Shown in pieces: positions 6,540 through 41,709 of a DNA stretch of 64,000 bases. The position numbers and the translations under genes were made by a program. The DNA lies in the IMG/VR virus record IMGVR_UViG_3300002835_006866, positions 1 to 64,000 of that record; one strand, written 5' to 3'. Under the pieces are notes generated by a model. It searched no databases and had not been told where the DNA came from. It saw nothing but the letters and a program-made list of their open reading frames with translations. Position 1 is the first letter of the stretch. Each line of letters opens with the position of its first letter. Origin of the DNA: a virus.

Positions 6540-6540
6540 T

Positions 6541-22423: not shown

Positions 22424-22858
22424 ATGAAACAAATTGAAGAACTGCTTGAAATGTGGCGTAAAGATTCTGATATAGATCGAACAGAACCTGGAAAAGCCTT
22501 ATTAGATATTCCCAAACTTCATAGTAAGTATTTGAACATTCTTTCAAAGCACAGGTTGCTTGCCAAAGAATCCGAATTTAAGTATAATAAAATGAAGAAA
22601 CTCAAATGGGAATATTATACTGGTAAACTAGATGATGAGACATTGAAGAAATACGGTTGGGAACCATTTTCCCTTTTACTCAAGTCTGATATATCTCTCT
22701 ATATGGAAAGTGATGAAGATATGAACCGTTATCTAGCAAACAAAGCTATGCATGATGAGATTGTTGATCTTTGCACCAGTATTTTAAAAGAGCTAAATAG
22801 TAGGACATTCCAATTAAGGGACTTTATATCATGGGAAAGATTTATACAGGGTGCATGA
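22424..22858 (+). CDS. uvsY: Recombination mediator UvsY
   Basis: W.KDS.ID, IPKLHSKYL, EYYTGK, R.FQ...I.W.RF..G. Confidence 0.9.
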   Translation: MKQIEELLEMWRKDSDIDRTEPGKALLDIPKLHSKYLNILSKHRLLAKESEFKYNKMKKLKWEYYTGKLDDETLKKYGWEPFSLLLKSDISLYMESDEDMNRYLANKAMHDEIVDLCTSILKELNSRTFQLRDFISWERFIQGA

Positions 22859-24317
22859 TTTAAAATTATATAAAAAGGATGAAGTTTACATCCGTTTCGA
22901 ATGTGAAAAAAACTTAGCACAAGAGCTAAGTGACTACTTTACTTTCTATGTCCCAGGGTATCAATTCATTCCAGCCTATAAAAATAGGCTCTGGGATGGA
23001 AAGATTCGCCTCGCCGATTTAAGAACATATAATATTTACGGCGGTCTTTTACCGTACATTCAAAAGTTTTGTGATGAGAGAAAATATAATCTCTATATTG
23101 ATTCTCAATTAAATTCTACAGAAAACTTCTCTCTGATAGAAGCAAAAGAGTTTATTCAAACTTTAAATATTCCTTTTGAAGTTCGTGATTACCAATTAAA
23201 ATCTTTTGTGCAAGCGGTAAGAAACAAGAGGTTGTTGTTACTTTCACCTACTGCATCGGGAAAATCTTTAATATTATATACGATCATAAGATATTTACAG
23301 GCTTCAGATTTTAAAAAAGGTTTATTAATCGTTCCAACAACTTCACTTGTGGAACAAATGTATAAGGATTTTCAAGACTATGGGTACGATTCTGATTCTT
23401 TTTGTCATCGTCAGTATGCTGGTAAGGACAAGACCACGAAAAAATTCTTAACGATTACCACATGGCAATCAATTTATAAAAATGATTCAGAATATTTTGA
23501 ACAATATGATTTTGTATTAGGTGATGAGGCTCACCAGTTCAAAGCAAAGTCATTAACAACAATACTTTCAAATTGTACAACGGCTAGTTATAGAATTGGT
23601 ACAACAGGCACATTAGACGGAACTCAAACTCATAGATTGGTGTTAGAAGGCCTTTTTGGTCCAGTTTACAAAGCAACAACTACATCCGAGTTAATCGAAA
23701 AAGGTCAGTTAGCCAGTTTTAGAATAAAATGTTTGTTACTGAAATATCCTGATGAAATCTGTAAACAAGCCAAAACTTGGGATTACAACCAAGAAATGGA
23801 GTACATAGTAAAAAATAATGCTAGAAATGAATTCATAAAAAATCTTGCCATATCTCTAGAAGGTAATACACTAGTTCTTTTCCAGTTTGTGGAAAAACAT
23901 GGTAAAATGTTACATGAAATGATTTCTTCAAAGTGTGACAATAGAAAAGTATTTTTTGTTTACGGAGGAACAGATGTTGAGATACGTGAATCGGTTAGGT
24001 CGATTACTGAAAAAGAAAACAACGCTATCATCGTTGCTTCTTATGGCACTTTCTCTACTGGTGTCAATATTCGCAACCTACATAATATTATCTTCGCCAG
24101 TCCTTCGAAGTCCAGGGTTAGGAATTTACAGTCGATAGGCCGTGGACTAAGAATAGGCAACAATAAAGAAGAAGCGGTTTTGTTTGACATTGCCGATGAC
24201 TTTAGAATAGGTAAGTTTGTGAATTACACATTAAATCATTTTATTGAACGAGTAAAAATATACGATGAAGAAAAGTTTAACTATAAATTCTACAACATCG
24301 AGCTTAAAAATGCCTGA
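22851..24317 (+). CDS. uvsW: SF2 DNA helicase UvsW
   Basis: WDGKIRL, SPTASGKS, DEAH, LQSIGRGLR. Confidence 0.95.
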   Translation: MHDLKLYKKDEVYIRFECEKNLAQELSDYFTFYVPGYQFIPAYKNRLWDGKIRLADLRTYNIYGGLLPYIQKFCDERKYNLYIDSQLNSTENFSLIEAKEFIQTLNIPFEVRDYQLKSFVQAVRNKRLLLLSPTASGKSLILYTIIRYLQASDFKKGLLIVPTTSLVEQMYKDFQDYGYDSDSFCHRQYAGKDKTTKKFLTITTWQSIYKNDSEYFEQYDFVLGDEAHQFKAKSLTTILSNCTTASYRIGTTGTLDGTQTHRLVLEGLFGPVYKATTTSELIEKGQLASFRIKCLLLKYPDEICKQAKTWDYNQEMEYIVKNNARNEFIKNLAISLEGNTLVLFQFVEKHGKMLHEMISSKCDNRKVFFVYGGTDVEIRESVRSITEKENNAIIVASYGTFSTGVNIRNLHNIIFASPSKSRVRNLQSIGRGLRIGNNKEEAVLFDIADDFRIGKFVNYTLNHFIERVKIYDEEKFNYKFYNIELKNA

Positions 24318-24729
24318 ATTCGAAAACATTAAAATCGTTCGACTACAAACCGGTGAAGATATCATTGCAGATTGTAAACAAGATGAAGAAAACTCTTCAG
24401 TGTTATTAAACAATCCTATGCACATAGTATTTAAAAGAATACCATCAGGAAGAACAGTCATGTTTATGATGCCTTGGCTTCCAATAGAATTGATTAAAGA
24501 AAATTCAGCTACCATATATGATTCTGACATTCTAACTGTTTTTGATCCTAAAGAAGATTTGATAGAGTATTATAGTCAACTTATAACAGATGAAGTTATG
24601 TCTGAGATTGGCGAACAATCTTTGAAAGGTGCTTTGTTTAGTTCAATGGAAGAAGCTGAAGAAGATGACATAGATGAAGAAGAACTTATGAACTTAATGA
24701 GAGAGAAAAGGAATAATAGGGTGCATTGA
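24310..24729 (+). CDS. Conserved T4-like hypothetical protein (Sm-like beta fold, acidic tail)
   Basis: IKIVRL.TGEDIIA, L.NP, PW; usual neighbour of uvsW; start set at ATG 24310. Confidence 0.6.
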   Translation: MPEFENIKIVRLQTGEDIIADCKQDEENSSVLLNNPMHIVFKRIPSGRTVMFMMPWLPIELIKENSATIYDSDILTVFDPKEDLIEYYSQLITDEVMSEIGEQSLKGALFSSMEEAEEDDIDEEELMNLMREKRNNRVH

Positions 24730-25382
24730 TGAATTATGATGATATAGTTGTAAAGAAACCTTGGGGTAAAGAATACCTTTGTTATAGAAATAATGAAGTT
24801 GCTATATGGTATCTTCATATTGAACAAGACAAAGAAACTTCGATGCATTGCCATCCAAATAAGAACACTGGATTTGTTGTATTAAAAGGTAAAGCAAAAC
24901 TTTCTTTTCTCAGAAATTCTGTTGATCTAGAAGGTTTAGATAAGATACACATTTTTAGATCAAGGTTTCATTCAACAAGAGCTGTAACAGATTCTTTTAT
25001 ATTTGAGATTGAAACGCCTGAAGATAAACACGATCTTGTTCGCTTAGACGATGCTTATGGTCGAGCAGGTAAAGAATACGAAGGACAAAATTACCATTTA
25101 CCAAAAGATGAATCTTGTTTTTGGATTGAAGAGGCTTCAGAAAATCCAAAATTAATGTTTATAAATGGTTGTTCGGTAAGACATTTAAAAACATCCAATA
25201 AAGAATTATTGCTAAATAAAGATGAGTCTGAATTGTTTGTCATAACAAGTGGTGGTGTAATTACCGAAAAAAATCAAAAGGTAGTTTGGCCAGGAGATGT
25301 CATAGACGGCAAAACATTAAATAGATTACTTAATTCTTTTGATGTAGAAAAGGACACAACCGTAATACACGTTACTAAGTGA
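24729..25382 (+). CDS. Cupin protein, mannose-6-phosphate isomerase type II-like
   Basis: KPWG.E, SMHCH..K, FH, EIETP, VRLDDAYGR. Confidence 0.75.
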   Translation: MNYDDIVVKKPWGKEYLCYRNNEVAIWYLHIEQDKETSMHCHPNKNTGFVVLKGKAKLSFLRNSVDLEGLDKIHIFRSRFHSTRAVTDSFIFEIETPEDKHDLVRLDDAYGRAGKEYEGQNYHLPKDESCFWIEEASENPKLMFINGCSVRHLKTSNKELLLNKDESELFVITSGGVITEKNQKVVWPGDVIDGKTLNRLLNSFDVEKDTTVIHVTK

Positions 25383-25389
25383 GTTGAAA

Positions 25390-26904
25390 ATGATTGATAT
25401 ATTATTTGTACATCCTAACGCTTCTGAAAAAATTTATCAAGGCCTTGCTAAGAATAACTCCGCTATAGAACCTCCAATCTGGGCAGCCATGTTGGCAAAT
25501 AGTGTGAGAGCAAAAGGGTTTAGACCAGAGATTCTTGATGCTGAAGTTGAAGGCCTAGATTACCTATCTGCTGCCAGAAGAATCACTGAATATAAAGCCA
25601 AAGTTGTTTGTTTTGTTGTATATGGCCAACAACCATCTGCATCTTCCCAAAACATGGAAGGTGCCACTGCAACAGCAAGAGAATTAAAAAATCTACAACC
25701 AAATACATTCGTTGTGTTTGTTGGTGGTCATGTTGCTGCATTGCCTATTGAAACGATGAAACAAGAAACATTCATCGATGCTGTTTGTCAAAACGAAGGT
25801 GTGTATACACTTCATTCTCTTCTGTCGTTACCAAATCTAGAAGAACAATCACTAAAGAAAGTAAAAGGTTTAGTCTTTAGAGATAATGATGGTAATATCA
25901 TTATGAATGAATCTTCACCTATTGTTCCTAAAGATATGCTTGAGCATGACCTGCCTGGTATGGCATGGGACTTATTAAGACCTCTTAGTGAATATAGAAC
26001 AGCAGGTTGGCACTCATGGTCAAATAATACTGAGAAACAACCTTTTGCTGCACTTTATACAAGTCTTGGTTGTCCATACAAATGTTCGTTCTGTATGATT
26101 AATATCATCAACCGAACTAAACAGGGTACAGATGTTGCAAGTGCCGATAGTAATGTTTTCCGTTGGTGGTCACCAGAGTTCATCATCAAACAGTTCGATG
26201 AGATAGCCCGACAAGGTGTTCGAAACATTAAAATTGCTGACGAACTTTTTGTTTTGAATCCTAGGCATTTTGAAGCCATTTGCGATTTGATTATAGAACG
26301 AGGTTATGATTTTAATATCTGGGCATATTCAAGAGTTGATACCTGTAAGCCTAAGTATCTTGATAAACTTGCCAAAGCTGGTGTAAAATGGTTAGGATTA
26401 GGTATTGAAAATCCAAATAATGAATTGAGGAAAGAAATTCATAAAGAAGGATTTCAAGAAGTCAAGGTTTTAGATTTAATCAATATGATTCGTGATGCAG
26501 GAATTAATGTAGGTGGTAATTATATCTTTGGACTTCCTTATGATACACATGAATCAATGCAAGCAACATTAGACTTTGCATTGGAAAATCCAACAGAAAT
26601 GGCTAACTTCTATTCTGCTATGGCATACCCAGGTAGTCCTCTTCATAATCAAGCTCGTATTCTTGGTTTAGATTTGCCTACAACCTATTCTGGTTATAGT
26701 CAACACTCTTATGATACCTTGAATCTTTCTAACGCTCACCTAAGTGCTGCTGAGATTTTGGCATTTAGAGACAAAGCCTGGGACACATATCACTCGAGCG
26801 ACAAATACCTTGGTTTGATGAAAACAAAATTTGGCCAAAAAGCCGTAGATGAACTTGATAGTACCAAAAAAGTTAAGTTGAAAAGAAAATTACTTGGAGA
26901 TTAA
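25390..26904 (+). CDS. Cobalamin-binding radical SAM protein
   Basis: N-terminal B12-binding region (PP..A, VGGH, NEG), GCPYKCSFC, DELF, GIE, IFGLP.DT. Confidence 0.88.
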   Translation: MIDILFVHPNASEKIYQGLAKNNSAIEPPIWAAMLANSVRAKGFRPEILDAEVEGLDYLSAARRITEYKAKVVCFVVYGQQPSASSQNMEGATATARELKNLQPNTFVVFVGGHVAALPIETMKQETFIDAVCQNEGVYTLHSLLSLPNLEEQSLKKVKGLVFRDNDGNIIMNESSPIVPKDMLEHDLPGMAWDLLRPLSEYRTAGWHSWSNNTEKQPFAALYTSLGCPYKCSFCMINIINRTKQGTDVASADSNVFRWWSPEFIIKQFDEIARQGVRNIKIADELFVLNPRHFEAICDLIIERGYDFNIWAYSRVDTCKPKYLDKLAKAGVKWLGLGIENPNNELRKEIHKEGFQEVKVLDLINMIRDAGINVGGNYIFGLPYDTHESMQATLDFALENPTEMANFYSAMAYPGSPLHNQARILGLDLPTTYSGYSQHSYDTLNLSNAHLSAAEILAFRDKAWDTYHSSDKYLGLMKTKFGQKAVDELDSTKKVKLKRKLLGD

Positions 26905-26905
26905 A

Positions 26906-27451
26906 ATGAAATCATTGATTATTACTTATGATAAGTTTCAAGACCATGAGGTTGTTTATCCTTTTTATCGTTTGAAAGAAGAAGGTGATGTTACCTTGAT
27001 GGCACACCAAATTGGAAAAATTTATGGTATTTTAGGTACTAATATGTTATCTAATGCTGTGACTGATGATCTTACTGATCCAATTTTTTCTAAAGAAATG
27101 ATAAGCAGATTTGACCTTCTAGTTATTCCTGGTGGTGTAAAAGCAATGGAAAAAATTAGACAAGAGAAACATGTTATAGATTTTATTTCAGCATGGCATA
27201 AAACAGGTAAAGTAATTGCAAGCACATGTTCTGGCGCCCAGCTATTAATTTCTGCGAAGATCGTAAAGGGAAAAAACATTAGCGCCTATTATGCTATGCA
27301 AGATGATGTTGAAAACGCTGGCGCTATATACTCTAGAGATCCAGTGGTTGTTGATGGCAATATCGTATCATCACCACACTACGATCATATGGGAATTTGG
27401 TTGAAAACTGCTATCGATATGGTGAAAGATGGACAAACAAACACTGCTTGA
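26906..27451 (+). CDS. DJ-1/PfpI family protein
   Basis: FQDHEVVYP, LVIPGG, ASTCSGAQLL nucleophile elbow, VVVDGNIVSS. Confidence 0.85.
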   Translation: MKSLIITYDKFQDHEVVYPFYRLKEEGDVTLMAHQIGKIYGILGTNMLSNAVTDDLTDPIFSKEMISRFDLLVIPGGVKAMEKIRQEKHVIDFISAWHKTGKVIASTCSGAQLLISAKIVKGKNISAYYAMQDDVENAGAIYSRDPVVVDGNIVSSPHYDHMGIWLKTAIDMVKDGQTNTA

Positions 27452-28250
27452 AATATACAAGAAAGCGGCTTTATGCCGTGCTTTCGAAGAAGAAGTCTAC
27501 AGACAGGTTGAGAACAAAAATGTTCGAATACCTGTTTATCTTTCTGCCGGTCAAGAATATATTTCCGCAACTTTGGCCGTATTACTTAAAGACATAGAAA
27601 AACAAATTTTTATTCAGCATCGAGGACATTCTACTTACCTTTCTTTTGGTGGTGATGTCGAACAATTAGTTCTCGAACTATTGGGAGACAAAAGAGGATG
27701 TGCTAACGGTATGGGTGGTTCTGCATCTATACAATCAAAAGAAAAAAACATCTATGGTCACGATGGTTTAATGGGTTCACACGGACCAATTGCTACAGGT
27801 ATGTGTTATGCCAATAAAAAGTTTACGTTATGTTTTACTGGTGACGCTGCAGCTGAAGAAGATTATTTTGTAACATCAATTGGTTGGGCATCAACTAAAA
27901 ACTTACCTATTTGGTATATTGTAGAAGATAACAATTATTCGATTCTAACCGAGAAAAAGGTTCGTCGTAATTGGGAAATGCATGATGTTGCCAAAGCCAT
28001 GAATATGGATGGTTTTAATGTTGAAGATGACCCAGAATCTATGTGGAATGTTATACAACAATGTAGTACAGAAAAACCTTTATTATTAAACATAAACACA
28101 ATTAGATTATTCTGGCATGCTGGTGCGGGTATCGATGACCCCAATGTGTTTGATCGACATAAAGTTTTTACTGAGATGTTTGGCAATGATATTAATCTTG
28201 AAGCTCAAGAACATGTGAAGGAGATTTGGTCAAAATGTCTGCAACGCTAA
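27429..28250 (+). CDS. TPP-dependent dehydrogenase E1 alpha-like subunit
   Basis: YLSAGQE, HRGH, G.GGS, TPP motif GDAAAEE...EDNN. Confidence 0.85.
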   Translation: MDKQTLLEIYKKAALCRAFEEEVYRQVENKNVRIPVYLSAGQEYISATLAVLLKDIEKQIFIQHRGHSTYLSFGGDVEQLVLELLGDKRGCANGMGGSASIQSKEKNIYGHDGLMGSHGPIATGMCYANKKFTLCFTGDAAAEEDYFVTSIGWASTKNLPIWYIVEDNNYSILTEKKVRRNWEMHDVAKAMNMDGFNVEDDPESMWNVIQQCSTEKPLLLNINTIRLFWHAGAGIDDPNVFDRHKVFTEMFGNDINLEAQEHVKEIWSKCLQR

Positions 28251-29137
28251 GAGATGTAATTAAAGAAACTGTTAGACACCATTTAAAGGAAGAAAATGGT
28301 TTGGCTATGGGCCAGTGCCTAACAGCTGTTGGTTGGGTTGGTGGTACACTACCAGAACTATATGAAGAAGATGGTATGGTAGAAGTTTCTATGGCTGATG
28401 TAGCGGGTGGAGGTTTTGCTGTTGGCGCAGCATTGGCAGGAAGAAGGCCAATGTATATCATTCGTTATCAAGGATTCAATTGGTTTAATGCACCAATAAT
28501 TATCAACTATGCTGCCAAGTCTAAAGAGATTTGGGGTGTGCCATGTCCAATGTTTGTTCGTTCAATTGCTATGGAAGGTGGCATTGGTCCAGTTGCCGGT
28601 TCTTCTCACCACGCTTTATATTATAGAATGCCCGGTGTTCGAATCGTTTCACCAATGACACCAGGTGAATATAAAAAAGTTTATAAAGATTTTATGGAAA
28701 GTGATGAAGTCTTTTATGTTTCAGAACACCGAGGCGCTTACAACAATACAGAAGAACTAGAAGATATTAATGATTCTTTTCCAGATATTGTTTTATTTCC
28801 AACTTCTATTACTCGATTTGCTGCACAAGAAGCTGCAAAACAATTATTGAAAGAAGGTTACAGAGTTGCAGTTCACCATATAGTGCAAATAAAACCTTTT
28901 GAACCTAGTGATGAGTCTGTTGTTTCTTTACGCAGAGCTCAAAAAGGTATAGTTCTTGATGATGATTACGTAAATGGTGTTGCTAAATCTCTTGCCTTTG
29001 ATCTGATACAAAAAACAAATGCTACAGTTTATGTTATGGGTTTAGATGATCGCACCGCAGGTTTTTATCCAGAAGTTGATAATCTGCCACCTTCGAAAGA
29101 AAAGATTGTTGAATTTGCTAAAAGGATAATTCGATGA
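28235..29137 (+). CDS. TPP-dependent E1 beta/transketolase C-terminal-like subunit
   Basis: G.AVGAALAG.RP, IINYAAK, SHH, PG..IVSP.TP, SEHR; coupled to the alpha subunit. Confidence 0.82.
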   Translation: MSATLRDVIKETVRHHLKEENGLAMGQCLTAVGWVGGTLPELYEEDGMVEVSMADVAGGGFAVGAALAGRRPMYIIRYQGFNWFNAPIIINYAAKSKEIWGVPCPMFVRSIAMEGGIGPVAGSSHHALYYRMPGVRIVSPMTPGEYKKVYKDFMESDEVFYVSEHRGAYNNTEELEDINDSFPDIVLFPTSITRFAAQEAAKQLLKEGYRVAVHHIVQIKPFEPSDESVVSLRRAQKGIVLDDDYVNGVAKSLAFDLIQKTNATVYVMGLDDRTAGFYPEVDNLPPSKEKIVEFAKRIIR

Positions 29138-30132
29138 ATATGTCTTTTTCTAAGACGCCTTATAGACTTTCTTTATTTGGAGGAGGCACGGATTACCCCG
29201 CTTGGTTTGAAAACAATCCTTGCAAAGTAATTTCAGCTTCAATGGCAAACTATAGTTATGTTCATGTCAAAGAATTGCCACCATTTTTTGAGCATAAGAT
29301 TTCAGTATCATATTCGAAAGTTGAACGAGTAAATTCCGTTGAAGAAATTGAACACCCTTCTGTACGAGCATGCCTTCAATATATGGACATAAAAGAAGGT
29401 GTGGTTATATCTTATGATGGAGATTTACCAGCAAGATCGGGGATAGGTTCAAGTTCATCTTTTACTGTGGGTCTTTTAAATGCTTTGTATAACTTTAAAG
29501 GTAAGTATGTTTCTCTAGAAGAGTTATCGAGACAGGCGATTTATATTGAGCAAGAAATGATCGGCGAAAATGTTGGTATTCAAGATCAAATTATGGCGGC
29601 TCATGGTGGTATAAGATTGATTGAAATGGGTCCAGGAAGAAATTGGAATTCTTATCCTTTATTTCTATCTCCTAACTATATGAAAGAATTAGAATCACAT
29701 ATCATGTTAGGGTTTTCAGGATTAAGTAGATATGCTGAAGTGCAATCTAAAAAACAGGTTGAAAACATCAAACAAAAAAATACCGATTTTTATTTGAAGT
29801 CTATGTCAGAACTAACCGAACATGCTCTTGAAGCTTTAATGGCAGGTAATGGAATGAACAAGATTGGTAATTTGTTAGATGCTGGTTGGAGATTAAAAAG
29901 AAACTTATCAGATAGTGTTACTGACAAGTGGATAGATAAGATATACAACAAAGCAATTAGCCTTGGCTCTCTTGGTGGAAAACTAATGGGTGCTGGCGGC
30001 GGTGGTTTTTTCTTATTTTTGGTTCCGCCAAATAGGCAAAAAGAATTTAAAGAACAGCTAGACGAAATAAAAGTTTGGGTTCCATTTAAATTCGATAAAG
30101 ATGGAAGTCACATAATTCATTTTTCAGATTGA
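29134..30132 (+). CDS. GHMP sugar kinase, HddA (heptose-7-phosphate 1-kinase)-like
   Basis: TPYRLSLFGGGTD, LPARSGIGSSS, G.QDQ, GGKLMGAGGGGF. Confidence 0.88.
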   Translation: MNMSFSKTPYRLSLFGGGTDYPAWFENNPCKVISASMANYSYVHVKELPPFFEHKISVSYSKVERVNSVEEIEHPSVRACLQYMDIKEGVVISYDGDLPARSGIGSSSSFTVGLLNALYNFKGKYVSLEELSRQAIYIEQEMIGENVGIQDQIMAAHGGIRLIEMGPGRNWNSYPLFLSPNYMKELESHIMLGFSGLSRYAEVQSKKQVENIKQKNTDFYLKSMSELTEHALEALMAGNGMNKIGNLLDAGWRLKRNLSDSVTDKWIDKIYNKAISLGSLGGKLMGAGGGGFFLFLVPPNRQKEFKEQLDEIKVWVPFKFDKDGSHIIHFSD

Positions 30133-30139
30133 GGTCGTT

Positions 30140-31303
30140 ATGAAATATCCTTTGATGCGTAACAATATTCTTAGAGAAGATTTAGATGCCATGATTGAGC
30201 ATCTAAAACAAGATGATCCTATTTTAACAAATGGGCCAAATTGCAGGAAGTTTGAAGAAGAATGGTCTGAGTGGTTGGGTGTGAAGTATTCCGTATTTGT
30301 AAATTCTGGTGCATCAGCAAATTTACTTTCAATGACTGCACTTAAAATTATGCACCCATATGGAGGCGAGGTCATTGTTCCGCCTTTAACATGGATATCC
30401 GATGTTGCTTCAGTGATTCAATGTGGTTTCAAACCTGTGTTTGTAGATATTGATCTGAATACTTTAGGTATGAACACAGATAAAATTATCGCTGCAATTA
30501 CTCCACAAACAAAAGCAGTTTTTCTTTCCCACATTCAAGGGTATAATGCAATCACAGATAAACTTATATACGAATTAGAAAAAAGAAATATACCTTTAAT
30601 TGAAGATGTATGTGAATCTCATGGTGCTACGTACAAAGGTAAAAAATGTGGAAGTATTGGTTGGATGTCCAACTTTTCTTTCTACTATGCTCACCATATG
30701 ACTACGATTGAAGGTGGCATGATTAGCACCAATGACAAGAATCTTTACCATACACTTAGAATGTTGAGGTCACATGGTATGGTTCGTGAGTGTGATAGCC
30801 AAGAACTAAAACAAAACTATATTGAAAACAATTTTGATTTAAATCCAGATTTTATATTTTCTTATGCAGCATACAACATGAGAAACAATGAACTTGGTGG
30901 AATACTTGGTCGAAAGCAGTTGCCAAGGTTGGATGAAAATGTTAAAGTTAGAAACTACAATAACCATAGGTTGCTAAGTAAACTCAACGATAACTATTTC
31001 ACAGAGTTTAATTTAGAAGGTCAAAGTAATTATGCCTTCAACATCGTTTTGAAAAATAAAGATGATGATTTTATGAATAGATTGTCAACAAAACTACGTG
31101 AAAGTGGAGTTGAATTTAGAAGAGGTTCTGCTGGTGGTGGAAATCAATTAAGACAACCTTATTTAAAAGATGTTGTGAATGTCGATCTAAAAGATTTTCC
31201 AAATACCGAACATGTTCACTTTTATGGTCTGTACATTGGTAATTTTCCAACAATGGAAAAACAAGAAGTGGATGAAATCGTAAACATTTTAAACGGAGTA
31301 TAG
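30140..31303 (+). CDS. DegT-fold PLP/PMP enzyme, ColD-like NDP-4-keto-6-deoxysugar 3-dehydratase
   Basis: NSGASANLL, EDVCESHGA, SFYYAHHMTTIEGG with His where aminotransferases have the Schiff-base Lys. Confidence 0.8.
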   Translation: MKYPLMRNNILREDLDAMIEHLKQDDPILTNGPNCRKFEEEWSEWLGVKYSVFVNSGASANLLSMTALKIMHPYGGEVIVPPLTWISDVASVIQCGFKPVFVDIDLNTLGMNTDKIIAAITPQTKAVFLSHIQGYNAITDKLIYELEKRNIPLIEDVCESHGATYKGKKCGSIGWMSNFSFYYAHHMTTIEGGMISTNDKNLYHTLRMLRSHGMVRECDSQELKQNYIENNFDLNPDFIFSYAAYNMRNNELGGILGRKQLPRLDENVKVRNYNNHRLLSKLNDNYFTEFNLEGQSNYAFNIVLKNKDDDFMNRLSTKLRESGVEFRRGSAGGGNQLRQPYLKDVVNVDLKDFPNTEHVHFYGLYIGNFPTMEKQEVDEIVNILNGV

Positions 31304-31304
31304 T

Positions 31305-32246
31305 ATGGGAAATTTGAGAGTTCTAGTAACTGGTGGAGCTGGTTACATTGGTTGTATTTTGGTGGAATATCTACTACAAGTAGGTTATAGAGTTACCGTT
31401 ATTGACAACTTTATGTTTCGCCAAACGGGTCTAAATCATTTGTGTGAAAATAAAGACTTGACGATTGTAAATGGAGATATTCGTAATCCTTTACACATGG
31501 CACCATTACTAAAAGAAGCAGACATTATTATTCCTTTGGCTGCCTTGGTTGGTGCACCACTTTGTAATAAAGATGTTGTTGGTGCAGATACAACAAACAA
31601 AGATGCTGTATTTTGGATGCTAAATAATATTTCAAAAGAACAACGCATCATTATGCCTACTACAAATTCGGCATATGGTACAGGTGACGAAAACAATTTC
31701 TGTACAGAAGAATCTCCGTTACGACCAATTTCAAAATATGCGGTTGATAAGGTCGCTGTTGAAAAAGTTTTGATGGAACGGGAAAACTCCATCAGTTATA
31801 GATTGGCTACTGTATTTGGTATGTCACCACGTATGCGTACTGATTTGTTAGTAAACGATTTAACTTACCGTGCTGTTAATGATGGTTATGTCGTTATCTT
31901 TGAAGGACACTTTAAACGAAATTATATTCATGTTCGTGACGTTTGTGAGGCATTTCTACATGCTATCTACCAGTTTGAAGAAATGAAAGGTAACGTATAC
32001 AATGTTGGTCTTTCGTCTGCGAATGTTTCTAAGTTGGAGTTATGTGAAATAATTAAGAAACAACTACCAAACTTTACGATTGTAGAAGGCGATATCAAAA
32101 AGGATCCAGATCAAAGAAACTACATTGTATCTAATGCAAAATTAGAAGCAACTGGTTGGATGCCTTATTATACCATTGATAATGGTGTTGAAGAACTTAT
32201 CAAAGGTTACACTTATCTCAAAAATAATATCTATGGTAATGTTTGA
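31305..32246 (+). CDS. NAD-dependent epimerase/dehydratase (extended SDR)
   Basis: VTGGAGYIG, YAVDK (YxxxK), RLATVFG.SPRMR.DL, HVRD. Confidence 0.9.
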   Translation: MGNLRVLVTGGAGYIGCILVEYLLQVGYRVTVIDNFMFRQTGLNHLCENKDLTIVNGDIRNPLHMAPLLKEADIIIPLAALVGAPLCNKDVVGADTTNKDAVFWMLNNISKEQRIIMPTTNSAYGTGDENNFCTEESPLRPISKYAVDKVAVEKVLMERENSISYRLATVFGMSPRMRTDLLVNDLTYRAVNDGYVVIFEGHFKRNYIHVRDVCEAFLHAIYQFEEMKGNVYNVGLSSANVSKLELCEIIKKQLPNFTIVEGDIKKDPDQRNYIVSNAKLEATGWMPYYTIDNGVEELIKGYTYLKNNIYGNV

Positions 32247-32688: not shown

Positions 32689-33288
32689 ATGAAACATAAA
32701 GATATTTTCCAAGAACAAGGATATGTGTTCGTCAAAAATTTTATTGATCCTGCTGTAGCAGATTACCTTTTTGAGTATCTAAGGTTTTCTACACATGCTA
32801 TTGTATTATCAGGACAAAGTAAAGTAGCAATACAGGGAGATGAACAAGTTCCCGGTTCTTATGGTTCCCGACATGGTGATATGGCTTTTGATTCTTTAAT
32901 GAAGCATATGCGGCCAAGAATGGAAGAAGTTACGGGCCTAGAGTTGTATCCTACCTATACTTACACTCGACTATACAAACCAGGTAACGAGCTTAAAAAA
33001 CATACTGATAGGCCATCATGTGAAATCTCCTGTACATTGAAGCTTGGTGATACAGGAGAATATAATTGGCCTATTTGGATGAAAGATGCCGAATATAAGC
33101 TTGACAAAGGCGATGCAGTAGTGTACCGTGGTTGTGATTTGGAACATTGGCGAGAGGTGTGTGAAGGACCTCCTGAATATAGAATGGGTCAAGTATTCAT
33201 GCACTATGTCGATAAAAATGGACCATATCCTGATTACAAATATGATAGAAGAACAGCAATGGCAAAGTTATTTGAAAAAGACCTATGA
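32689..33288 (+). CDS. 2OG-Fe(II) oxygenase-like protein
   Basis: TY.R.Y..G..L.KHTDRPSCEIS, HWRE, QVF.HYV. Confidence 0.8.
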   Translation: MKHKDIFQEQGYVFVKNFIDPAVADYLFEYLRFSTHAIVLSGQSKVAIQGDEQVPGSYGSRHGDMAFDSLMKHMRPRMEEVTGLELYPTYTYTRLYKPGNELKKHTDRPSCEISCTLKLGDTGEYNWPIWMKDAEYKLDKGDAVVYRGCDLEHWREVCEGPPEYRMGQVFMHYVDKNGPYPDYKYDRRTAMAKLFEKDL

Positions 33289-33824
33289 CCACTAAAAAAA
33301 CAAAACACTATATCAACAACTCGGATTTTTTGGCAGCGTTGATTGAATACCAAAAACAATGTGACATTGCCAAAAAAGAAAAGAAAAACGATCCGCCTAT
33401 ACCGAATTATCTAGGTGAATGTTTCTTGAAAATTGCGGAACACTTATCAAGAAAACCAAACTTCATTTCTTATTCTTTCCGTGATGAGATGATTGCCGAT
33501 GGTATAGAAAATTGTTTAATGTATTTTCGTAACTTTGACCCGGTAAAGAGTAACAATCCATTTGCATATTTTACTCAAATCATATATTATGCTTTCTTAC
33601 GTCGAATTCAAAAAGAGAAAAAACAATTATATGTAAAGTATAAGGCAACTGAACAAATTGGTATTCTAGATGAGTTCGAAATGTTTGAAGATGCCGATGG
33701 ACACCAAAAACAATTTCAACTCTATGATAACATATCGGAGTTTATTCAGACGTTCGAGGAAAACAAACGTAAGAAAAAAGAAAACAAAACAAAAGGTCTA
33801 GAAAAATTTATTGATGAAATATGA
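33285..33824 (+). CDS. gp55: Late transcription sigma factor gp55
   Basis: HYINN..FL, NF..YSFRDEMI.DGIENC, NPFAYFTQI.Y.AFLRRI.KEK. Confidence 0.95.
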   Translation: MTTKKTKHYINNSDFLAALIEYQKQCDIAKKEKKNDPPIPNYLGECFLKIAEHLSRKPNFISYSFRDEMIADGIENCLMYFRNFDPVKSNNPFAYFTQIIYYAFLRRIQKEKKQLYVKYKATEQIGILDEFEMFEDADGHQKQFQLYDNISEFIQTFEENKRKKKENKTKGLEKFIDEI

Positions 33825-33843: not shown

Positions 33844-34917
33844 ATGAAATTATGTGTTCTCGGAGACACCCATTTTGGAGCTCGAGGTGATTCTTTAGAA
33901 TTTCACAAATACTTCCAAAAGTTTTATGATGAAGTATTTTTTCCATACCTTATCGAAAATGATATCAACTGTGTGGTACAACTAGGCGATTTGTTTGATC
34001 GCCGAAAGTTTATCAATTTCAATACACTACATCTATGCCGTCAATACTTTTTTGACCGATGCCAGACTTTAGGTATTAAAGTACACACACTTCTTGGTAA
34101 TCATGACATAGCATTTAAAAACACACTTGAGGTAAATTCAACAGGCTTGTTGTTGAACGAGTATGAAAATCTCGAATACTATGATGATTTTGATACATTA
34201 GAATTTGATGGTGTTTCTATTGATATTGTTCCTTGGATTTGTCCAGATAATGAGAATGAAATTTTTGAAAAAATAAAAAACAGTAAATCACAAATTTGTT
34301 TTGGTCATTTTGAGATAGATGGTTTTGAAATGGATCGAGGCAATGTTCATCAAGGTGGCCTTGACAGGAAAGCATTATCAAAGTATGATGTGGTGTTAAG
34401 TGGACACTTTCACCATAAATCTTCATCAGATAATATTACCTATGTTGGTACGCCATACGAAATGACATGGGCAGATTATAATGATCCAAAAGGATTTCAT
34501 ATCTTTGATACTGAAACAAGATCACTAGAATTCGTTGAAAACAAAAATCGAATGTTTTACAAACTAAACTACAAAGATGGTTTAGAACATTTTTCTGAAA
34601 ATTATAAATCATTCGATTATTCTATCTATGAAGGTTGTTACGTTAAAGTCATAGTGATAGAGAAGATGAATCCTTTTTTATTTGATATTGTTATAGATAA
34701 GATTTATAAAGCAGGCGCTTGTGATGTTTCAATCGTCGAAGATTTTACCGAAGTAATTGCTGATGATGATAAAGACATTGTTGACCAAGCTGAAGATACA
34801 ATGACAATCTTGTCCAAATATATTGACAATTTGCAGTTGCAAGTTGAATCGGATAAACTCAAGAATTTAATGAGAGAACTTTATGTGGAATCTCTCACGC
34901 TAGAAAAGGTAGAATGA
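33844..34917 (+). CDS. gp47: Recombination nuclease gp47 (Mre11-like)
   Basis: GDTHFG, GDLFDRRK, GNHD, GHFE, SGHFH. Confidence 0.95.
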   Translation: MKLCVLGDTHFGARGDSLEFHKYFQKFYDEVFFPYLIENDINCVVQLGDLFDRRKFINFNTLHLCRQYFFDRCQTLGIKVHTLLGNHDIAFKNTLEVNSTGLLLNEYENLEYYDDFDTLEFDGVSIDIVPWICPDNENEIFEKIKNSKSQICFGHFEIDGFEMDRGNVHQGGLDRKALSKYDVVLSGHFHHKSSSDNITYVGTPYEMTWADYNDPKGFHIFDTETRSLEFVENKNRMFYKLNYKDGLEHFSENYKSFDYSIYEGCYVKVIVIEKMNPFLFDIVIDKIYKAGACDVSIVEDFTEVIADDDKDIVDQAEDTMTILSKYIDNLQLQVESDKLKNLMRELYVESLTLEKVE

Positions 34918-35546
34918 TGTACAAGACAATCTATAATAATCCTGATGAAAGACGTAGAATTACTTACACTTGGTGTTATTGGGATAATGCTTTTACAAAA
35001 GAAGAATTGGACAAAATGTGCCAGTTTTTTACCTCAAACGGTGTTGAAAGGGGTACAACAGTAGGTGAACACACTAAACAATTGGTCAATGAAGATGTTC
35101 GTGTTTCAAATGTAAAGTTTTATAATTATGGTGAAAACACTGCTTGGATTTTTGAAAGAATTAATTGGGTCATCGAGAGTATCAATGAAAGATTCTTTAA
35201 TTACAATCTAAACGGATATGAATCTTTTCAGTACACTGAATATGAAGGTGATGAATTAGGTAAATACGATTTTCATCAAGATATGATTAATGGCAAAAAC
35301 ATGCCAGAAAATATGGATGAAACTAGAAAGTTATCCATGTCGCTGTTGTTAAACGAGCCTGGTGTAGACTTCGAGGGTGGAGAATTTCAAATAAATTCTG
35401 GCCAAGAATCTAATGCTGAAACTGTTGATTTGACCCGTGGTCGAATGATTTTCTTTCCTTCTTATGCCATACACAGAGTTGCTCCGGTGACAAAAGGCCG
35501 TAGAAAGTCTCTTGTTGTCTGGATTACTGGACCTAAATTTAAATAA
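34914..35546 (+). CDS. 2OG-Fe(II) oxygenase (prolyl hydroxylase/PKHD-like)
   Basis: FQYTEY, FHQD, RKLS.S, FEGGEF, FPS..HRV.PVTKG.RKSLV.W. Confidence 0.88.
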   Translation: MMYKTIYNNPDERRRITYTWCYWDNAFTKEELDKMCQFFTSNGVERGTTVGEHTKQLVNEDVRVSNVKFYNYGENTAWIFERINWVIESINERFFNYNLNGYESFQYTEYEGDELGKYDFHQDMINGKNMPENMDETRKLSMSLLLNEPGVDFEGGEFQINSGQESNAETVDLTRGRMIFFPSYAIHRVAPVTKGRRKSLVVWITGPKFK

Positions 35547-37425: not shown

Positions 37426-38012
37426 GTGATGATATTTTAAAGATTGATACATCCGTCAACTTGGGAAAAACAGAAGTAATTGAACCTTTACCAGTATACG
37501 ATGACAATTCTCCAATGTTAAGAATGGTAATGCCTGAGTATACAGACCCATTACCTTCACCAGCAATGAACAAGTTGATTAAACAACTTCATTTAACTCG
37601 ACAGAAGTATAAAGGCCTTGGTTTATCCGCTAATCAATGCGGCATAATGAAAAGAGTTTTTGTTATTGGTTATGAGGACATGGAACTTGCCTTTATTAAT
37701 CCAAAGGTAATCAATATGTCGGATGATTTGAAAAAAGAACCTGAAGGTTGCCTCTCTTACCCAGGTTTATTTCTTAAAATAAGCAGGCCTAGTTGGATTG
37801 AAGTAGAGTTTATCAATCAAAATGGTGAAACAAAAACTACTACACTGAGTGGTCTAACTGCCAGATGTTTCTTACATGAATTAGATCACATGAACGGTAT
37901 CAGATTTGTTGAACATGCAGGTTCATTAGCAATTAAAATGGCAAAGCAAAAACAACAAAAGATGCTTAAAAAGATAAAGAGAGCTGTGAAAAATAATGAG
38001 TTATCGATTTGA
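37422..38012 (+). CDS. def: Peptide deformylase
   Basis: GLSANQCG, EGCLS, HELDH: all three PDF motifs. Confidence 0.95.
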   Translation: MSDDILKIDTSVNLGKTEVIEPLPVYDDNSPMLRMVMPEYTDPLPSPAMNKLIKQLHLTRQKYKGLGLSANQCGIMKRVFVIGYEDMELAFINPKVINMSDDLKKEPEGCLSYPGLFLKISRPSWIEVEFINQNGETKTTTLSGLTARCFLHELDHMNGIRFVEHAGSLAIKMAKQKQQKMLKKIKRAVKNNELSI

Positions 38013-39273
38013 TCCAAAAGATGATGTAGAAACACAATGGGATAAATGGAGAGATTCCGGCATTGTGTATGAGAACATTGATGAGAGTGATCTTCGGGAG
38101 AGGGTCATTCGTGATTTGTCCTATGTTTCACAAATGGATGTTAAAGAGTATACTTTGTTCCAGAAATGGTGTGAAGTGCAAGATAGATATCCATCTATTG
38201 TGGTCAATGATTTGTGGGAAGGAGAGAAACGAGTCATCTCCGACCCGAATCAACAGAAGGCTATTGATGAAATCAAGAGCAACTTTTGGGTACAAAACGA
38301 TGTTGATGATTACTTAAACATTGAGCCAGAACTCCTATATACAAATAAAGAAGATGATTTACCTGAGTTGTGGAATTGTATACGTACATTTTCTTCAACG
38401 ATGAAAAACAATTCTAATATTGGTCGTAACTTAAATTTTGTTGTACGTGATAAAGTAACTAAAAAGTATCTTGGTGTTACTTGCATCAGTTCAGACTTTC
38501 TTGATTTAACACCAAGAGATAACTTTATTGGCTGGGAAAGAGAAAAGAAAACTCAGGGTGGTATGATTAATCATACAGCCATTGGTTCAACAATTGTTCC
38601 ACTACAACCTCTCGGTTTTAATTATGTTGGTGGTAAATTGTTAGCACTTCTTTGCTTGTCAACACCAATTCAAGAATTATGGGAAAACTTATATGGTGAT
38701 AAACTTGTTGGTATAACCACGACTTCTTTGTATGGTAAAACAAAGGCCGGTGGTCTGTCTCAATACGATAATCTAGATTTTTGGCAGCCAATGGGTTTTA
38801 CTTCAGGCTCAGTTTCATTTGAACCTCTGGCAGAAACACGTTACATGATTCGTGAGTGGTTAAAAACAAATCACACCAGAAAATATTTTGAGTGGTATGT
38901 TGCAAAGAAACCATCTGGTCAACCACATAAACGTGACCATAAAAACAGATCGCTGTCTTTTGCATACAACAAACTTTCTGTACCAAAAGAATTGATTCGT
39001 TCCGAACATGCAAGAGGAATTTATTTTTCGCCATTGTATGATAAGACTTGTGAATTTCTTCGTGGCGAAAATGATGGCAGTAACATGGTAAAATTATTTG
39101 ATACAAGTGTCGAGAATCTTACCAATGTTTGGAAACAAAAACATGCCAAACCGAGAATCAAACAATTGGCAAAGAAAGGTAGAATATCTACCGAAAACCT
39201 TTTTTATGATGATCTTGCCGTCTTAACCTGGCAAGAAACAAAAGATAAATATTTGCCTCAAGTGGGTCGATAA
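37996..39273 (+). CDS. DUF4338/DruA-like protein, copy 1
   Basis: GR.L.F.V.D....KYLG, PLQPLGFNYVGGKLLAL, TTSLYG, SQYD, G.TSG. Confidence 0.65.
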   Translation: MSYRFDPKDDVETQWDKWRDSGIVYENIDESDLRERVIRDLSYVSQMDVKEYTLFQKWCEVQDRYPSIVVNDLWEGEKRVISDPNQQKAIDEIKSNFWVQNDVDDYLNIEPELLYTNKEDDLPELWNCIRTFSSTMKNNSNIGRNLNFVVRDKVTKKYLGVTCISSDFLDLTPRDNFIGWEREKKTQGGMINHTAIGSTIVPLQPLGFNYVGGKLLALLCLSTPIQELWENLYGDKLVGITTTSLYGKTKAGGLSQYDNLDFWQPMGFTSGSVSFEPLAETRYMIREWLKTNHTRKYFEWYVAKKPSGQPHKRDHKNRSLSFAYNKLSVPKELIRSEHARGIYFSPLYDKTCEFLRGENDGSNMVKLFDTSVENLTNVWKQKHAKPRIKQLAKKGRISTENLFYDDLAVLTWQETKDKYLPQVGR

Positions 39274-39453: not shown

Positions 39454-41709
39454 ATGACAACTTTTACTGTTGAACAAAAGTCTCAGCTTGCTAAACTTAT
39501 GGCAACTGAGAACCTTACGGTCGAACACCAAAAAATTCGAACTGCTATGTTCGATACAAAAAACCGTGTTCTCTACTTGCCAATTTGGCAAAATATGTCT
39601 GGCCACCTTTATGACCTTTTGACCGGTCATGAAGTTGGCCATGCTTTGTACACTCCTGCGGAAGGTTGGCATGATGTTGCTACCGACAAGTCTAAAGGCA
39701 AAGGATACAAATCATTCCTAAATGTTCTCGAAGATGCTCGAATCGAGAAAAAAGTAATTCGTAAATACCCCGGTCTTCGGCTTTCTTTCCGCAAAGCTTT
39801 CAATGACCTATTTGAGCGTGATTTCTTTGGCATTAAAGATCAAAACATTGACAGCCTTTCCTTTATTGATCGATTGAATTTGTACACCAAGAGCCAATAC
39901 TCTTTAGATATCGGTTTTACCGATGAAGAGCAATTGATGGTTCAAGAAGTACAAGCTCTAGAAACTTGGGAAGATGTAGTAAAACTAGCCGATAAAATTT
40001 ACCAATATTCTAAAGAAGAGCAATACCAACTGGAAACGATTCAAGATTTTTCCAATTCCAACGGCTCTTATGATGGTGAAGAAGAATTTGATTTCGATGA
40101 TATTGAATCTGAAGAAGATGAAACCGATGGTGAACCAGATTCAACTTCTGAAGGTGGTGATAAAAACTCCAATCCGGAAAATTCTGAAAACTCCCAAGAT
40201 GATTTCAATTCTGAAGGTGAAAAATCCAATGGATCAAATCTAGAATCTAGAAAAGAATCACAAAATTCTTTTGATAATGGCTTCGATGATTTTTCACCTG
40301 GATGCCAAACAGATGAACAGTATCGCAAGAATGAAGATAAACTTTTGGATGAAAAATGCAAACCTTACTTGTATTTGAATATGCCAACTCCGAATTTGGA
40401 TGTCATTGTTACTCCTGCAAAGCGAGTACAACAACTTCTATCGGATAGTTTTGCTTCACAGATTGCTATAAATCGGTTCACGGCAAATGATGTAAACAAA
40501 TTTGTTCAAGATTTCAAAACCAAAAACGAAAAGTATATCAACCTTTTGGTGAAAGAGTTTGAAATGCGTAAGGCTGCAAAAGCTTTTAGCAAATCAAAAC
40601 AATCGGATACTGGTGATATTGATGTTTCCAAATTGTCTCTTTACAAGTTTGATGATAATATTTTCCGTAAACTTACGATTGTGCCAAAAGGCAAATCGCA
40701 TGGCATGATTCTTCTTTTGGATTATTCTGGTTCCATGTCACAAAACATGGCCGGCTCGATTGAACAAATTCTTGTTTTATCTTTGTTTTGCCGTAAAGTG
40801 AATATTCCTTTTCATGTTTATGCGTTTTCAAATTGCACAGCCACATGGTATATTGATAACGAAAAATCTTATGATGTAAGAAAGCCAGAATCTTTTAGTC
40901 AAAATCTAAATGAATTTGGTTCCTCTGATCTTATTCTTCGTGAATACTTGAACTCAAATATGGGAAATGCTGAGTTTAACAAAGCATTGAAGAATATGAT
41001 TTTGCTGAAAATGTCGTATGCTGGTCGTGGCACTCGGTATATTATGCGGCCACAAAGTGAATCGTTATCAAATACACCAATGAATGAGGCGATCATAGCA
41101 ATGAAACCTATTATGGAAAAATTCAAGAAAACCAATAACTTGGATATTACAAATTTGGTCATTGTTCATGACGGTGAATCTGATGATATCAATCGCTATC
41201 ACAAAGAGCCCAATGAAGAAAATTCTGGGTATACTGGTTGGTACAATACTACTTCACAAAACGTGATTATGCAGGATAAAAAAATAAAGTTTCAATCAAA
41301 AATTGAAACTAATTTGAATCAATCTCTTTTGAAGTGGTTTTCACAAACGACTGGTTCTAAAATTTTTGGTTTCTTTATTGTTCCACCAACCAACATTAGT
41401 CGGGTATTGATGTCAAAATACTGTGATAAGAATGGTAATCATTTGCCTTACAATGCCGATATGTGGGATATAAAGAAAGAATTAGCTAAAAAATTCAGAA
41501 AAGAAAAATACCTTCTTTCTAAGAACCCTGGATTTGATTCATTTTTCTTTATAAATGGTGGTGATGATCTTTTGGCTGAAGATGAGGAACTTGAAATTGA
41601 AGGTAAAATAACTTCGGCTAAATTGAAAAATGCCTTCATGAAATATAATAAGAGCAAACAAATCAATCGAATTCTTGTTTCTAAATTCATTGAAGGTATT
41701 GCAACTTGA
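39454..41709 (+). CDS. HExxH metallopeptidase-like + VWA domain protein (CobT-like partner of MoxR ATPase)
   Basis: HEVGH, N..EDARIE, long acidic linker, MIDAS DYSGS...NTP...HDGE. Confidence 0.8.
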   Translation: MTTFTVEQKSQLAKLMATENLTVEHQKIRTAMFDTKNRVLYLPIWQNMSGHLYDLLTGHEVGHALYTPAEGWHDVATDKSKGKGYKSFLNVLEDARIEKKVIRKYPGLRLSFRKAFNDLFERDFFGIKDQNIDSLSFIDRLNLYTKSQYSLDIGFTDEEQLMVQEVQALETWEDVVKLADKIYQYSKEEQYQLETIQDFSNSNGSYDGEEEFDFDDIESEEDETDGEPDSTSEGGDKNSNPENSENSQDDFNSEGEKSNGSNLESRKESQNSFDNGFDDFSPGCQTDEQYRKNEDKLLDEKCKPYLYLNMPTPNLDVIVTPAKRVQQLLSDSFASQIAINRFTANDVNKFVQDFKTKNEKYINLLVKEFEMRKAAKAFSKSKQSDTGDIDVSKLSLYKFDDNIFRKLTIVPKGKSHGMILLLDYSGSMSQNMAGSIEQILVLSLFCRKVNIPFHVYAFSNCTATWYIDNEKSYDVRKPESFSQNLNEFGSSDLILREYLNSNMGNAEFNKALKNMILLKMSYAGRGTRYIMRPQSESLSNTPMNEAIIAMKPIMEKFKKTNNLDITNLVIVHDGESDDINRYHKEPNEENSGYTGWYNTTSQNVIMQDKKIKFQSKIETNLNQSLLKWFSQTTGSKIFGFFIVPPTNISRVLMSKYCDKNGNHLPYNADMWDIKKELAKKFRKEKYLLSKNPGFDSFFFINGGDDLLAEDEELEIEGKITSAKLKNAFMKYNKSKQINRILVSKFIEGIAT

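Follow-up and report, generated by a model that had tools for sequence, protein, structure and literature searches.

A gene cassette predicted to remodel GDP-heptose between uvsW and gp55 of an uncultured marine T4-like phage

Which nucleotide sugar would a phage build with eight enzyme genes inserted between its uvsW helicase gene and its late sigma factor gene, gp55? The question is raised by the IMG/VR virus record IMGVR_UViG_3300002835_006866, a contig of 95,851 bp estimated to be about 54% complete, whose first 64 kb (positions 1 to 64,000) form the window analysed here. Judged by its genes, the window comes from an uncultured marine T4-like myovirus. The eight genes, hereafter the cassette, had been read from the sequence alone as a pathway for a branched, deoxygenated sugar, either yersiniose-like or heptose-based (the original prediction). 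We find that the cassette is real, an uncharacterised variation on the known logic of nucleotide-sugar tailoring. It probably turns guanosine diphosphate (GDP)-heptose into a 3-deoxy sugar, which would be further altered by a thiamine diphosphate (ThDP) enzyme and a cobalamin (B12) radical S-adenosylmethionine (SAM) enzyme.

The cassette is composed of eight co-directional open reading frames (ORFs) on the + strand, from 24726 to 32246, with a spacing between neighbours of -25 to +7 nt. Their order is cupin, B12 radical SAM, DJ-1/PfpI, E1 alpha, E1 beta, GHMP kinase, DegT-fold enzyme and short-chain dehydrogenase/reductase (SDR), and the positions and family calls first proposed for all eight hold (Table 1); for several of the TTG starts set by the program-made ORF list, the true start is probably an ATG 1-4 codons further on. 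Dozens of IMG/VR contigs, and bacterial genomes too, hold the same gene set in the same order, and because of this recurrence the cassette is far from a chance grouping; the co-occurrence of the genes elsewhere, in phage contigs as in bacterial loci, is thus borne out. The motifs are intact, namely CxxxCxxC in the radical SAM protein, GDA-x27-NN in E1 alpha, the nucleophile Cys in PfpI, and GGAGYIG (Rossmann) with YAVDK (YxxxK) in the SDR. Megablast of the cassette against 50,697 GenBank phage records gave no match, so that no cultured phage in that collection, from which close relatives of the window's genome may be missing, carries it, and tblastn with the E1 alpha and radical SAM proteins against the same records gave only distant matches (22-31% identity). 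No published account of this gene combination was found in the literature; the pelagimyophage paper names lipopolysaccharide genes and radical SAM cassettes in general terms only.

The nature of the scaffold is indicated by the last three genes. The SDR is a full-length relative of the PDB structure 6VO6, which we take to be the GDP-heptose C4-dehydrogenase Cj1427, whereas its matches to all other SDR structures reach at most 73 bits. It had been regarded as the reductase of a sugar branch; an enzyme of the 6VO6 type would make the 4-keto group itself, and a 4,6-dehydratase is therefore not required. In the DegT-fold protein, His185 aligns with His188 of ColD, replacing the pyridoxal 5'-phosphate (PLP) Schiff-base Lys of aminotransferases: the motif FYYAHHMTTIEGG is aligned to FYSHHIATMEGG of ColD, and the column is fixed by the ColD H188K and H188N mutant entries. 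A His occupies this position in all cassette-linked homologues. The assignment as a ColD-type 3-dehydratase is confirmed in this respect, and the protein is a predicted C3-dehydratase of a GDP-4-keto sugar, a call that the alignment supports. ColD itself, the GDP-4-keto-6-deoxy-D-mannose 3-dehydratase of the colitose pathway, is the best structural-sequence match and has in common with the phage protein a GDP-linked substrate and the catalytic His for Lys; the differences are the score (about 186 bits), the partners, which are not GMD and ColC, and the presumed substrate, which has seven carbons and a C6 hydroxyl.

HddA is the top NCBIfam match of the kinase, although the equivalog cut-off is not reached, and the top PDB matches are heptose kinases (3k85, WcbL 4usk and 4n3o). 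By homology the protein is a candidate D-glycero-D-manno-heptose-7-phosphate 1-kinase, as expected from the HddA-like label and from the heptose-based alternative of the original prediction. The genomic partners of HddA-type kinases, GmhA, GmhB and HddC, are located beside the bacterial homologues (loci L095, L102 and L126) and not in the phage contig. The SDR match, the ColD-like His and the genes for GmhA, GmhB-like and HddC proteins beside bacterial cassettes are the reasons for considering GDP-heptose, and not a 6-deoxyhexose, as the substrate. There is thus good support for predicting that the scaffold is GDP-heptose and that tailoring begins with C4 oxidation and C3 deoxygenation.

These steps have a precedent in Campylobacter jejuni. 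Cj1427 oxidises C4 of GDP-heptose, and its bound reduced nicotinamide adenine dinucleotide (NADH) is regenerated with 2-oxoglutarate (PMC10680097, PMC7949155, PMC9978623). In vitro, Cj1427 and the HS:5 C3-dehydratase give GDP-D-glycero-3-deoxy-4-keto-heptose, 2-oxoglutarate being used by the former and released by the latter (PMC10680097). The capsular GDP-heptose pathways of C. jejuni (GmhA, HddA, GmhB and HddC; Cj1427; the HS:5 PLP C3-dehydratase) share with the cassette an HddA-type kinase, a Cj1427-type SDR and a ColD-type 3-dehydratase. In contrast, they end in epimerases and C4-reductases and include no ThDP enzyme, B12 radical SAM enzyme, cupin or PfpI; their 3-dehydratase naturally follows a 4,6-dehydratase, whereas the cassette is phage-borne and lacks the isomerase, the phosphatase and the guanylyltransferase.

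A second question is what the E1 pair does. E1 alpha reaches 121 bits with the NCBIfam model of pyruvate dehydrogenase E1 alpha (cut-off 394), and its PDB alignment to human E1 alpha ends at residue 277 of 365, the C-terminal part of about 90 residues being missing. E1 beta, which in relatives is always accompanied by E1 alpha, reaches 52 bits (cut-off 321). No E2 or lipoyl domain (PF00198, PF00364) is present in the 96-kb contig, which is about 54% complete. The pair thus shows neither the E2 partner nor the equivalog-level scores of the E1 of a lipoyl-dependent 2-oxoacid dehydrogenase. At the same site of sister phages (layout B), the place of the cupin, PfpI and E1 pair is filled by one ThDP enzyme of 611 aa of the acetolactate synthase (ALS)/YerE type, and this swap, together with the lack of E2 and lipoyl domains, argues for a role of the pair in ThDP carboligation. 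The view of the pair as a sugar-pathway ThDP enzyme performing carboligation, and not as a pyruvate dehydrogenase, therefore stands as first proposed, as a supported prediction.

Linkage was counted in 67 non-redundant loci with enough flanking sequence (27 phage, 40 bacterial). Within 9 kb of the radical SAM gene, all 27 phage loci and 37 of the 40 bacterial ones have a ThDP enzyme of one type or another; a Cj1427-like SDR is present in 62 of the 67 loci and a His-type dehydratase in 39 of the 40 bacterial ones. Three characters expected of a sugar C-branching ThDP enzyme are present: the ThDP motif, the linkage to a 3-dehydratase and the interchange between E1 pair and ALS-like enzyme. YerE acylates a 3,6-dideoxy-4-keto hexose and ErwE has been shown to act on a model ketone analogue (PMC9306805), while pairs of the AviB1/AviB2 type have only been proposed to branch 4-keto sugars (PMC4753412). 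In the yersiniose and erwiniose systems (YerE and ErwE; the E1-like pairs AviB1/AviB2 and Pau11/Pau12), as in the cassette, the product of a dehydratase dependent on pyridoxamine 5'-phosphate (PMP) meets a ThDP enzyme, and the two architectures known across yersiniose-type and AviB systems, a single ALS-like protein or an E1 alpha/beta pair, interchange in cassette phages. The known acyl-branching reactions differ in that they concern CDP- or dTDP-3,6-dideoxyhexoses, whereas the cassette, which has no evident YerF-like reductase, would act on a GDP-heptose that keeps its C6 hydroxyl.

Other ThDP arrangements are also observed. In bacteria, the ThDP partner most often found with the radical SAM gene (30 of 40 loci) is a short pair, made of an E1 alpha-like protein of about 200 aa and a pyrimidine-binding protein of about 178 aa without the transketolase C domain (e.g. 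L102:13251-14393 and L126:6829-7993). In more distant phages (L054:11520-14406 and the comparable loci L049-L058), genes for a PanB-family ketopantoate hydroxymethyltransferase (320 bits, above cut-off) and for an ALS-like ThDP enzyme come after the radical SAM gene, an association which hints that the donor of the ThDP reaction is a modified 2-oxo acid.

Of the core genes of the cassette, the B12 radical SAM gene is the best conserved, and relatives of its product number in the thousands in metagenomes. The protein has the class B (cobalamin) domain arrangement, an N-terminal B12-binding domain followed by a radical SAM core, in which CxxxCxxC at residue 230 reads CPYKCSFC. Its best NCBIfam match is HpnJ (135 bits, cut-off 578), and its PDB matches, to AprD4 (36 bits), TsrM and TokK, are weak; it has no close characterised relative. 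The same B12-binding and CxxxCxxC architecture is found in the sugar-acting class B enzymes GenK and Fom3 and in the non-methylating HpnJ, OxsB and AprD4. Methylation, C6-C7 diol dehydration and skeletal rearrangement are possible reactions.

The cupin and PfpI are restricted to loci with a full-length E1 pair; PfpI is present in all 10 phage loci with such a pair and in none of the 17 without it. The Pfam matches of the cupin (MannoseP_isomer, Cupin_2) are all below cut-off. Its AlphaFold2 model (predicted local distance difference test score 93) consists of a metallocupin and a second beta domain, and the fold matches are generic, with the CapF cupin domain at the top (Z 13.9), followed by D-lyxose isomerase and phosphomannose isomerase. 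The model leaves an isomerase or epimerase of a keto sugar or sugar phosphate as a possible function. An RmlC-type 3,5-epimerase was also considered: Pfam PF00908 (dTDP_sugar_isom) gave no match, and the CapF epimerase domain heads the generic metallocupin matches. For this role and for that of a GmhA substitute, the fold search gave nothing beyond 'metallocupin'.

Many viral contigs carry the cassette at the same site between uvsW and gp55. Four main layouts can be distinguished in phages: A, the full set, often with a haloacid dehalogenase (HAD) phosphatase and a 301-aa protein, both absent from the window; B, with the exchange described above; C, in which neither ColD nor the SDR is adjacent; and D, in more distant phages, where an SDR-radical SAM arrangement is combined with ALS-like/PanB or with a short E1-like pair. 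The 301-aa protein, which in sister phages is encoded after E1 beta and before the kinase, was tried as the missing nucleotidyltransferase and rejected: it has no Pfam, NCBIfam or PHROG match. The bacterial carriers are Methylopumilus, Pelagibacteraceae single-cell genomes and many Omnitrophota, in which the cassette genes lie within glycan loci (three are given in Table 1). There they are found with GmhA and HddC-type neighbours; the L095 run has genes for GmhA (172 bits), for an HddC-type protein (186 bits) and for a HAD phosphatase. In the radical SAM tree, viral and bacterial sequences are interleaved, with at least 5 forced switches of the virus/bacterium label. The window's sequence belongs to a well-supported clade of nine phage sequences, adjoining OM43-like betaproteobacterial ones.

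The search for heptose genes in the rest of the contig, on the other hand, gave none of GmhA, GmhB and HddC. The absence of a nucleotidyltransferase, originally noted for the window, extends to the contig; in fact, NTP_transferase and SIS isomerase genes were found neither in the contig, nor in the examined viral loci, nor in two phage records at least 90% complete. As no nucleotidyltransferase or SIS isomerase is encoded, the phage would draw on the heptose metabolism of its host.

The original prediction also assigned the product to several glycosyltransferase (GT)-like proteins of the window. Of these, only one, a DUF4422 protein encoded 16.5 kb downstream of the cassette, is genetically tied to it. 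DUF4422 above cut-off and the fold of the WbbM N-terminal domain (Foldseek of the AlphaFold2 model against 6u4b: E 8.8e-12, template modelling score 0.73, 16% identity) place this protein in GT111. GT111 is the N-terminal domain of Klebsiella WbbM, a UDP-galactofuranosyltransferase (PMC12269835); the window protein differs in being stand-alone and in its presumed donor, a modified GDP-heptose and not UDP-Galf. Homologues of the DUF4422 gene are inside the cassette in at least 5 other phage layouts. Its presence matches that of the cassette in all 10 loci that span both sites (4 with both, 6 with neither), and according to core-gene trees cassette and DUF4422 need about two joint changes (at least 2 independent). 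This genetic tie, from a small sample, is suggestive of a transferase for the cassette product. A 271-aa protein (43482-44297) with a weak Anp1 (GT62-like) match and a phrog_1574 match of 216 bits was rejected as cassette transferase: it is a core gene product, 79-93% identical in all relatives, with or without the cassette. No GT8 gene is present in the contig, and its only GT2 gene (88555-89025) lies outside the window, in a phosphate-starvation gene block downstream.

The resulting pathway would proceed as follows. (1) The HddA-like kinase would drive host heptose-7-phosphate into the alpha-1-phosphate/GDP branch, the isomerase, phosphatase and guanylyltransferase being supplied by the host. 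(2) The Cj1427-like SDR would oxidise C4, 2-oxoglutarate recycling the bound NADH. (3) The ColD-like enzyme would strip the C3 hydroxyl, using glutamate and releasing 2-oxoglutarate, to give GDP-3-deoxy-4-keto-heptose; because 2-oxoglutarate is released here and consumed in step 2, the two enzymes may be coupled through their cofactors. (4) E1 alpha/beta would acylate the C4 ketone with a 2-oxo acid as donor, following the logic of YerE and AviB1/AviB2, with the cupin and PfpI assisting in some way. (5) The B12 radical SAM enzyme would methylate or rearrange the sugar or its branch. (6) The GT111-type transferase would attach the product to a host envelope glycan or to the virion. Steps 1 to 3 have their basis in homology and synteny; steps 4 to 6, and the order of the steps, we infer.

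Several observations weigh against this pathway. Every NCBIfam equivalog score of the cassette proteins is below cut-off, and the reading of the SDR presumes that 6VO6 is Cj1427. Some Pelagibacter loci hold three different ThDP enzymes, and the types may not be simple substitutes for each other. The phages of layout C have neither ColD nor SDR next to the cassette, the window variant is without the HAD phosphatase that many sister phages carry, and the lack of GmhA, GmhB and HddC, which is common to the contig and two nearly complete relatives, makes the pathway dependent on the host. Neither for a 4-C-acyl branch nor for C4 is a reductase apparent. Finally, the co-variation with GT111 concerns 10 loci and about two independent events.

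Among other explanations, the one that departs least keeps the heptose core and makes the ThDP enzyme non-branching: with the cupin and PfpI it would handle a small 2-oxo acid, leading to a side-product, an O- or N-linked acyl group, or turnover of 2-oxoglutarate and 2-hydroxyglutarate. The restriction of cupin and PfpI to loci with the full-length E1 pair is what a small-molecule sub-pathway would give, other phages pair the ALS-type enzyme with PanB, which itself works on 2-oxo acids, and ErwE-type enzymes require specially made 2-oxo acids. We nevertheless consider this explanation unlikely, since Pfam and NCBIfam reveal no acyltransferase or CoA-handling gene in the cassette and the ThDP enzyme is nearly always accompanied by a linked 3-dehydratase, the source of the classical acceptor ketone. 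Less probable still, and by a good deal, is the hexose version of the original prediction, in which a 4,6-dehydratase encoded elsewhere feeds a nucleoside diphosphate-4-keto-6-deoxyhexose into the cassette and the SDR reduces the branch of a yersiniose-like 3,6-dideoxy-4-C-(hydroxyethyl)hexose. In its favour, 6-deoxyhexoses are the substrates on which the chemistry of ColD and YerE is best known, and the SDR weakly matches 4,6-dehydratase and epimerase models; yet no dehydratase or reductase structure exceeds the 73 bits given above, against 356 bits for 6VO6, the kinase is of the heptose type, and the bacterial cassettes carry GmhA and HddC, not hexose-activating genes.

Two further explanations concern nonulosonic acids and phage DNA. 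A cassette for nonulosonic acid synthesis is conceivable because the window also contains NeuB (220 bits) and a CMP-transferase-like gene (5198-7371), the DegT protein matches PseC and LegC models and the SDR matches LegB, so that SDR and DegT could act like PseB/PseC or LegB/LegC and feed NeuB and the NeuA-like protein. This role was rejected, and we give it hardly any credence, on the strength of the His found in place of the transamination Lys and of the SDR scores (19.6 bits for PseB, 356 for 6VO6); besides, NeuB does not follow the cassette from one examined locus to the next. As for base hypermodification of phage DNA, which would explain a cassette placed among replication and recombination genes with a 2-oxoglutarate (2OG) oxygenase nearby (34914-35546), and to which sigma-70-like consensus sites upstream of uvsY and uvsW without a late motif near the cassette lend weak support, it appears very improbable to us: Pfam and NCBIfam detect no DNA-modifying family in the cassette, and the bacterial cassette sits between glycosyltransferases in glycan loci.

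The GDP-heptose pathway thus joins three understood steps (heptose activation, C4 oxidation and PMP-dependent C3 deoxygenation) to two that are undescribed on heptoses, ThDP carboligation and a B12 radical SAM reaction. In its fullest form, the product would be an undescribed 3-deoxy-heptose with a ThDP-installed carbon branch, remodelled by the cobalamin radical SAM enzyme on the nucleotide sugar and placed by GT111 on the host envelope or virion during infection, in abundant marine T4-like phages and in bacteria exchanging genes with them; taken whole, this picture is somewhat easier to doubt than to accept. If true, direct action of such an enzyme on a nucleotide sugar would be a chemistry new to the cobalamin radical SAM class. 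The cassette is very common, as near relatives of its radical SAM protein are counted in thousands in metagenomes, and it moves between phages and bacteria, including relatives of the ocean's dominant heterotrophs. Solving it would reveal a new sugar and probably a new radical SAM reaction, and would show how phages alter the surfaces of hosts or virions. The cassette also suggests that cobalamin and thiamine are needed while streamlined marine bacteria are infected.

Table 1. Cassette, flanking genes and putative transferase in the window, and gene runs of three bacterial loci
Feature	Position	Strand	Evidence or gene run
uvsW helicase, upstream core-gene flank	22851-24317	+	Pfam UvsW_N and helicase domains
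DUF6561 protein, flanking the cassette start	24265-24729		
Two-domain cupin protein	24726-25382	+	metallocupin N-terminal part with invariant H41, H43, H82
Cobalamin-binding-domain radical SAM enzyme	25384-26904	+	Pfam B12-binding PF02310 50.8 bits; Radical_SAM PF04055 76.4 bits
DJ-1/PfpI-family protein	26894-27451	+	Pfam 108 bits; conserved nucleophile Cys112
ThDP-binding E1 alpha-like subunit	27429-28250	+	E1_dh 86 bits; GDA-x27-NN ThDP motif
E1 beta-like subunit	28226-29137	+	Transket_pyr 44.9 bits; Transketolase_C 26.5 bits
HddA-like GHMP sugar kinase	29134-30132	+	top NCBIfam match HddA, 127 bits (cut-off 600)
Predicted ColD-type PMP-dependent C3-dehydratase, DegT fold	30140-31303	+	best PDB match ColD 2gms, 186 bits
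SDR	31305-32246	+	PDB 6VO6/6VO8, E 1e-105, 356 bits, residues 5-312
YunG-family protein, overlapping the SDR stop codon	32243-32647	+	Pfam YunG 36 bits
199-aa ORF just upstream of gp55	32689-33288		phrog_2954, annotated 'ferrochelatase', 175 bits; no Pfam match
gp55 late sigma factor, true downstream core-gene flank	33285-33824	+	phrog_234 'late sigma transcription factor', 208 bits
DUF4422 / GT111-type glycosyltransferase	48802-49635	+	Pfam DUF4422 42.8 bits (cut-off 25)
Methylopumilus L095			GT2, GT2, kinase, cupin, HAD, radical SAM, PfpI, E1 alpha/beta, ColD-like, HddC-type, GmhA, SDR
Pelagibacteraceae L102			ALS-like, radical SAM, E1 alpha/beta, short E1 pair, kinase, ColD-like, RmlC, SDR, NTP_transferase-HAD fusion, GT2
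Omnitrophota L126			short E1 pair, Fcl-like SDR, Cj1427-like SDR, radical SAM, kinase, NTP_transferase, His-type DegT

Among the window's gene products, UvsY, UvsW, proteins like gp47 and gp46, and a peptide deformylase can be identified; the UvsW protein is 53-56% identical to those of Pelagibacter phage Mosig and cyanomyoviruses, and the major capsid protein is about 62% identical to cyanophage counterparts. The ORF at 32689-33288, considered as gp55, was ruled out, the real gp55 being one gene further and 74-87% identical across all relatives; this ORF, of the 'ferrochelatase' PHROG, is found in some relatives only. The YunG gene is retained in relatives without the cassette (e.g. L185 and L215) and is therefore not specific to it. 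Promoter and terminator scans gave numbers of sites at chance level, from which the timing of expression is not datable.

The window has other features of note. A second sugar cassette (3347-7371), located beside neck and tail genes, encodes two radical SAM/SPASM proteins, the CMP-transferase-like protein (5198-5854) and NeuB (6541-7371), a composition which suggests nonulosonic acid synthesis; it does not co-occur with the heptose cassette in the examined loci. The gene for the 2OG-Fe(II) oxygenase (58 bits) is an insertion that separates the gp47-like gene from the gp46-like one. Two proteins match the Pfam family of the Druantia defence protein DruA (37996-39273, 67.7 bits; 57872-58987, 39.2 bits), and the first is 58-94% identical in most related phage loci, which is odd for a conserved phage gene. 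Between this gene and one for a CobS-like AAA_5 ATPase lies a 751-aa protein (39454-41709) without a Pfam match, found with 48-75% identity in more than 200 viral contigs.

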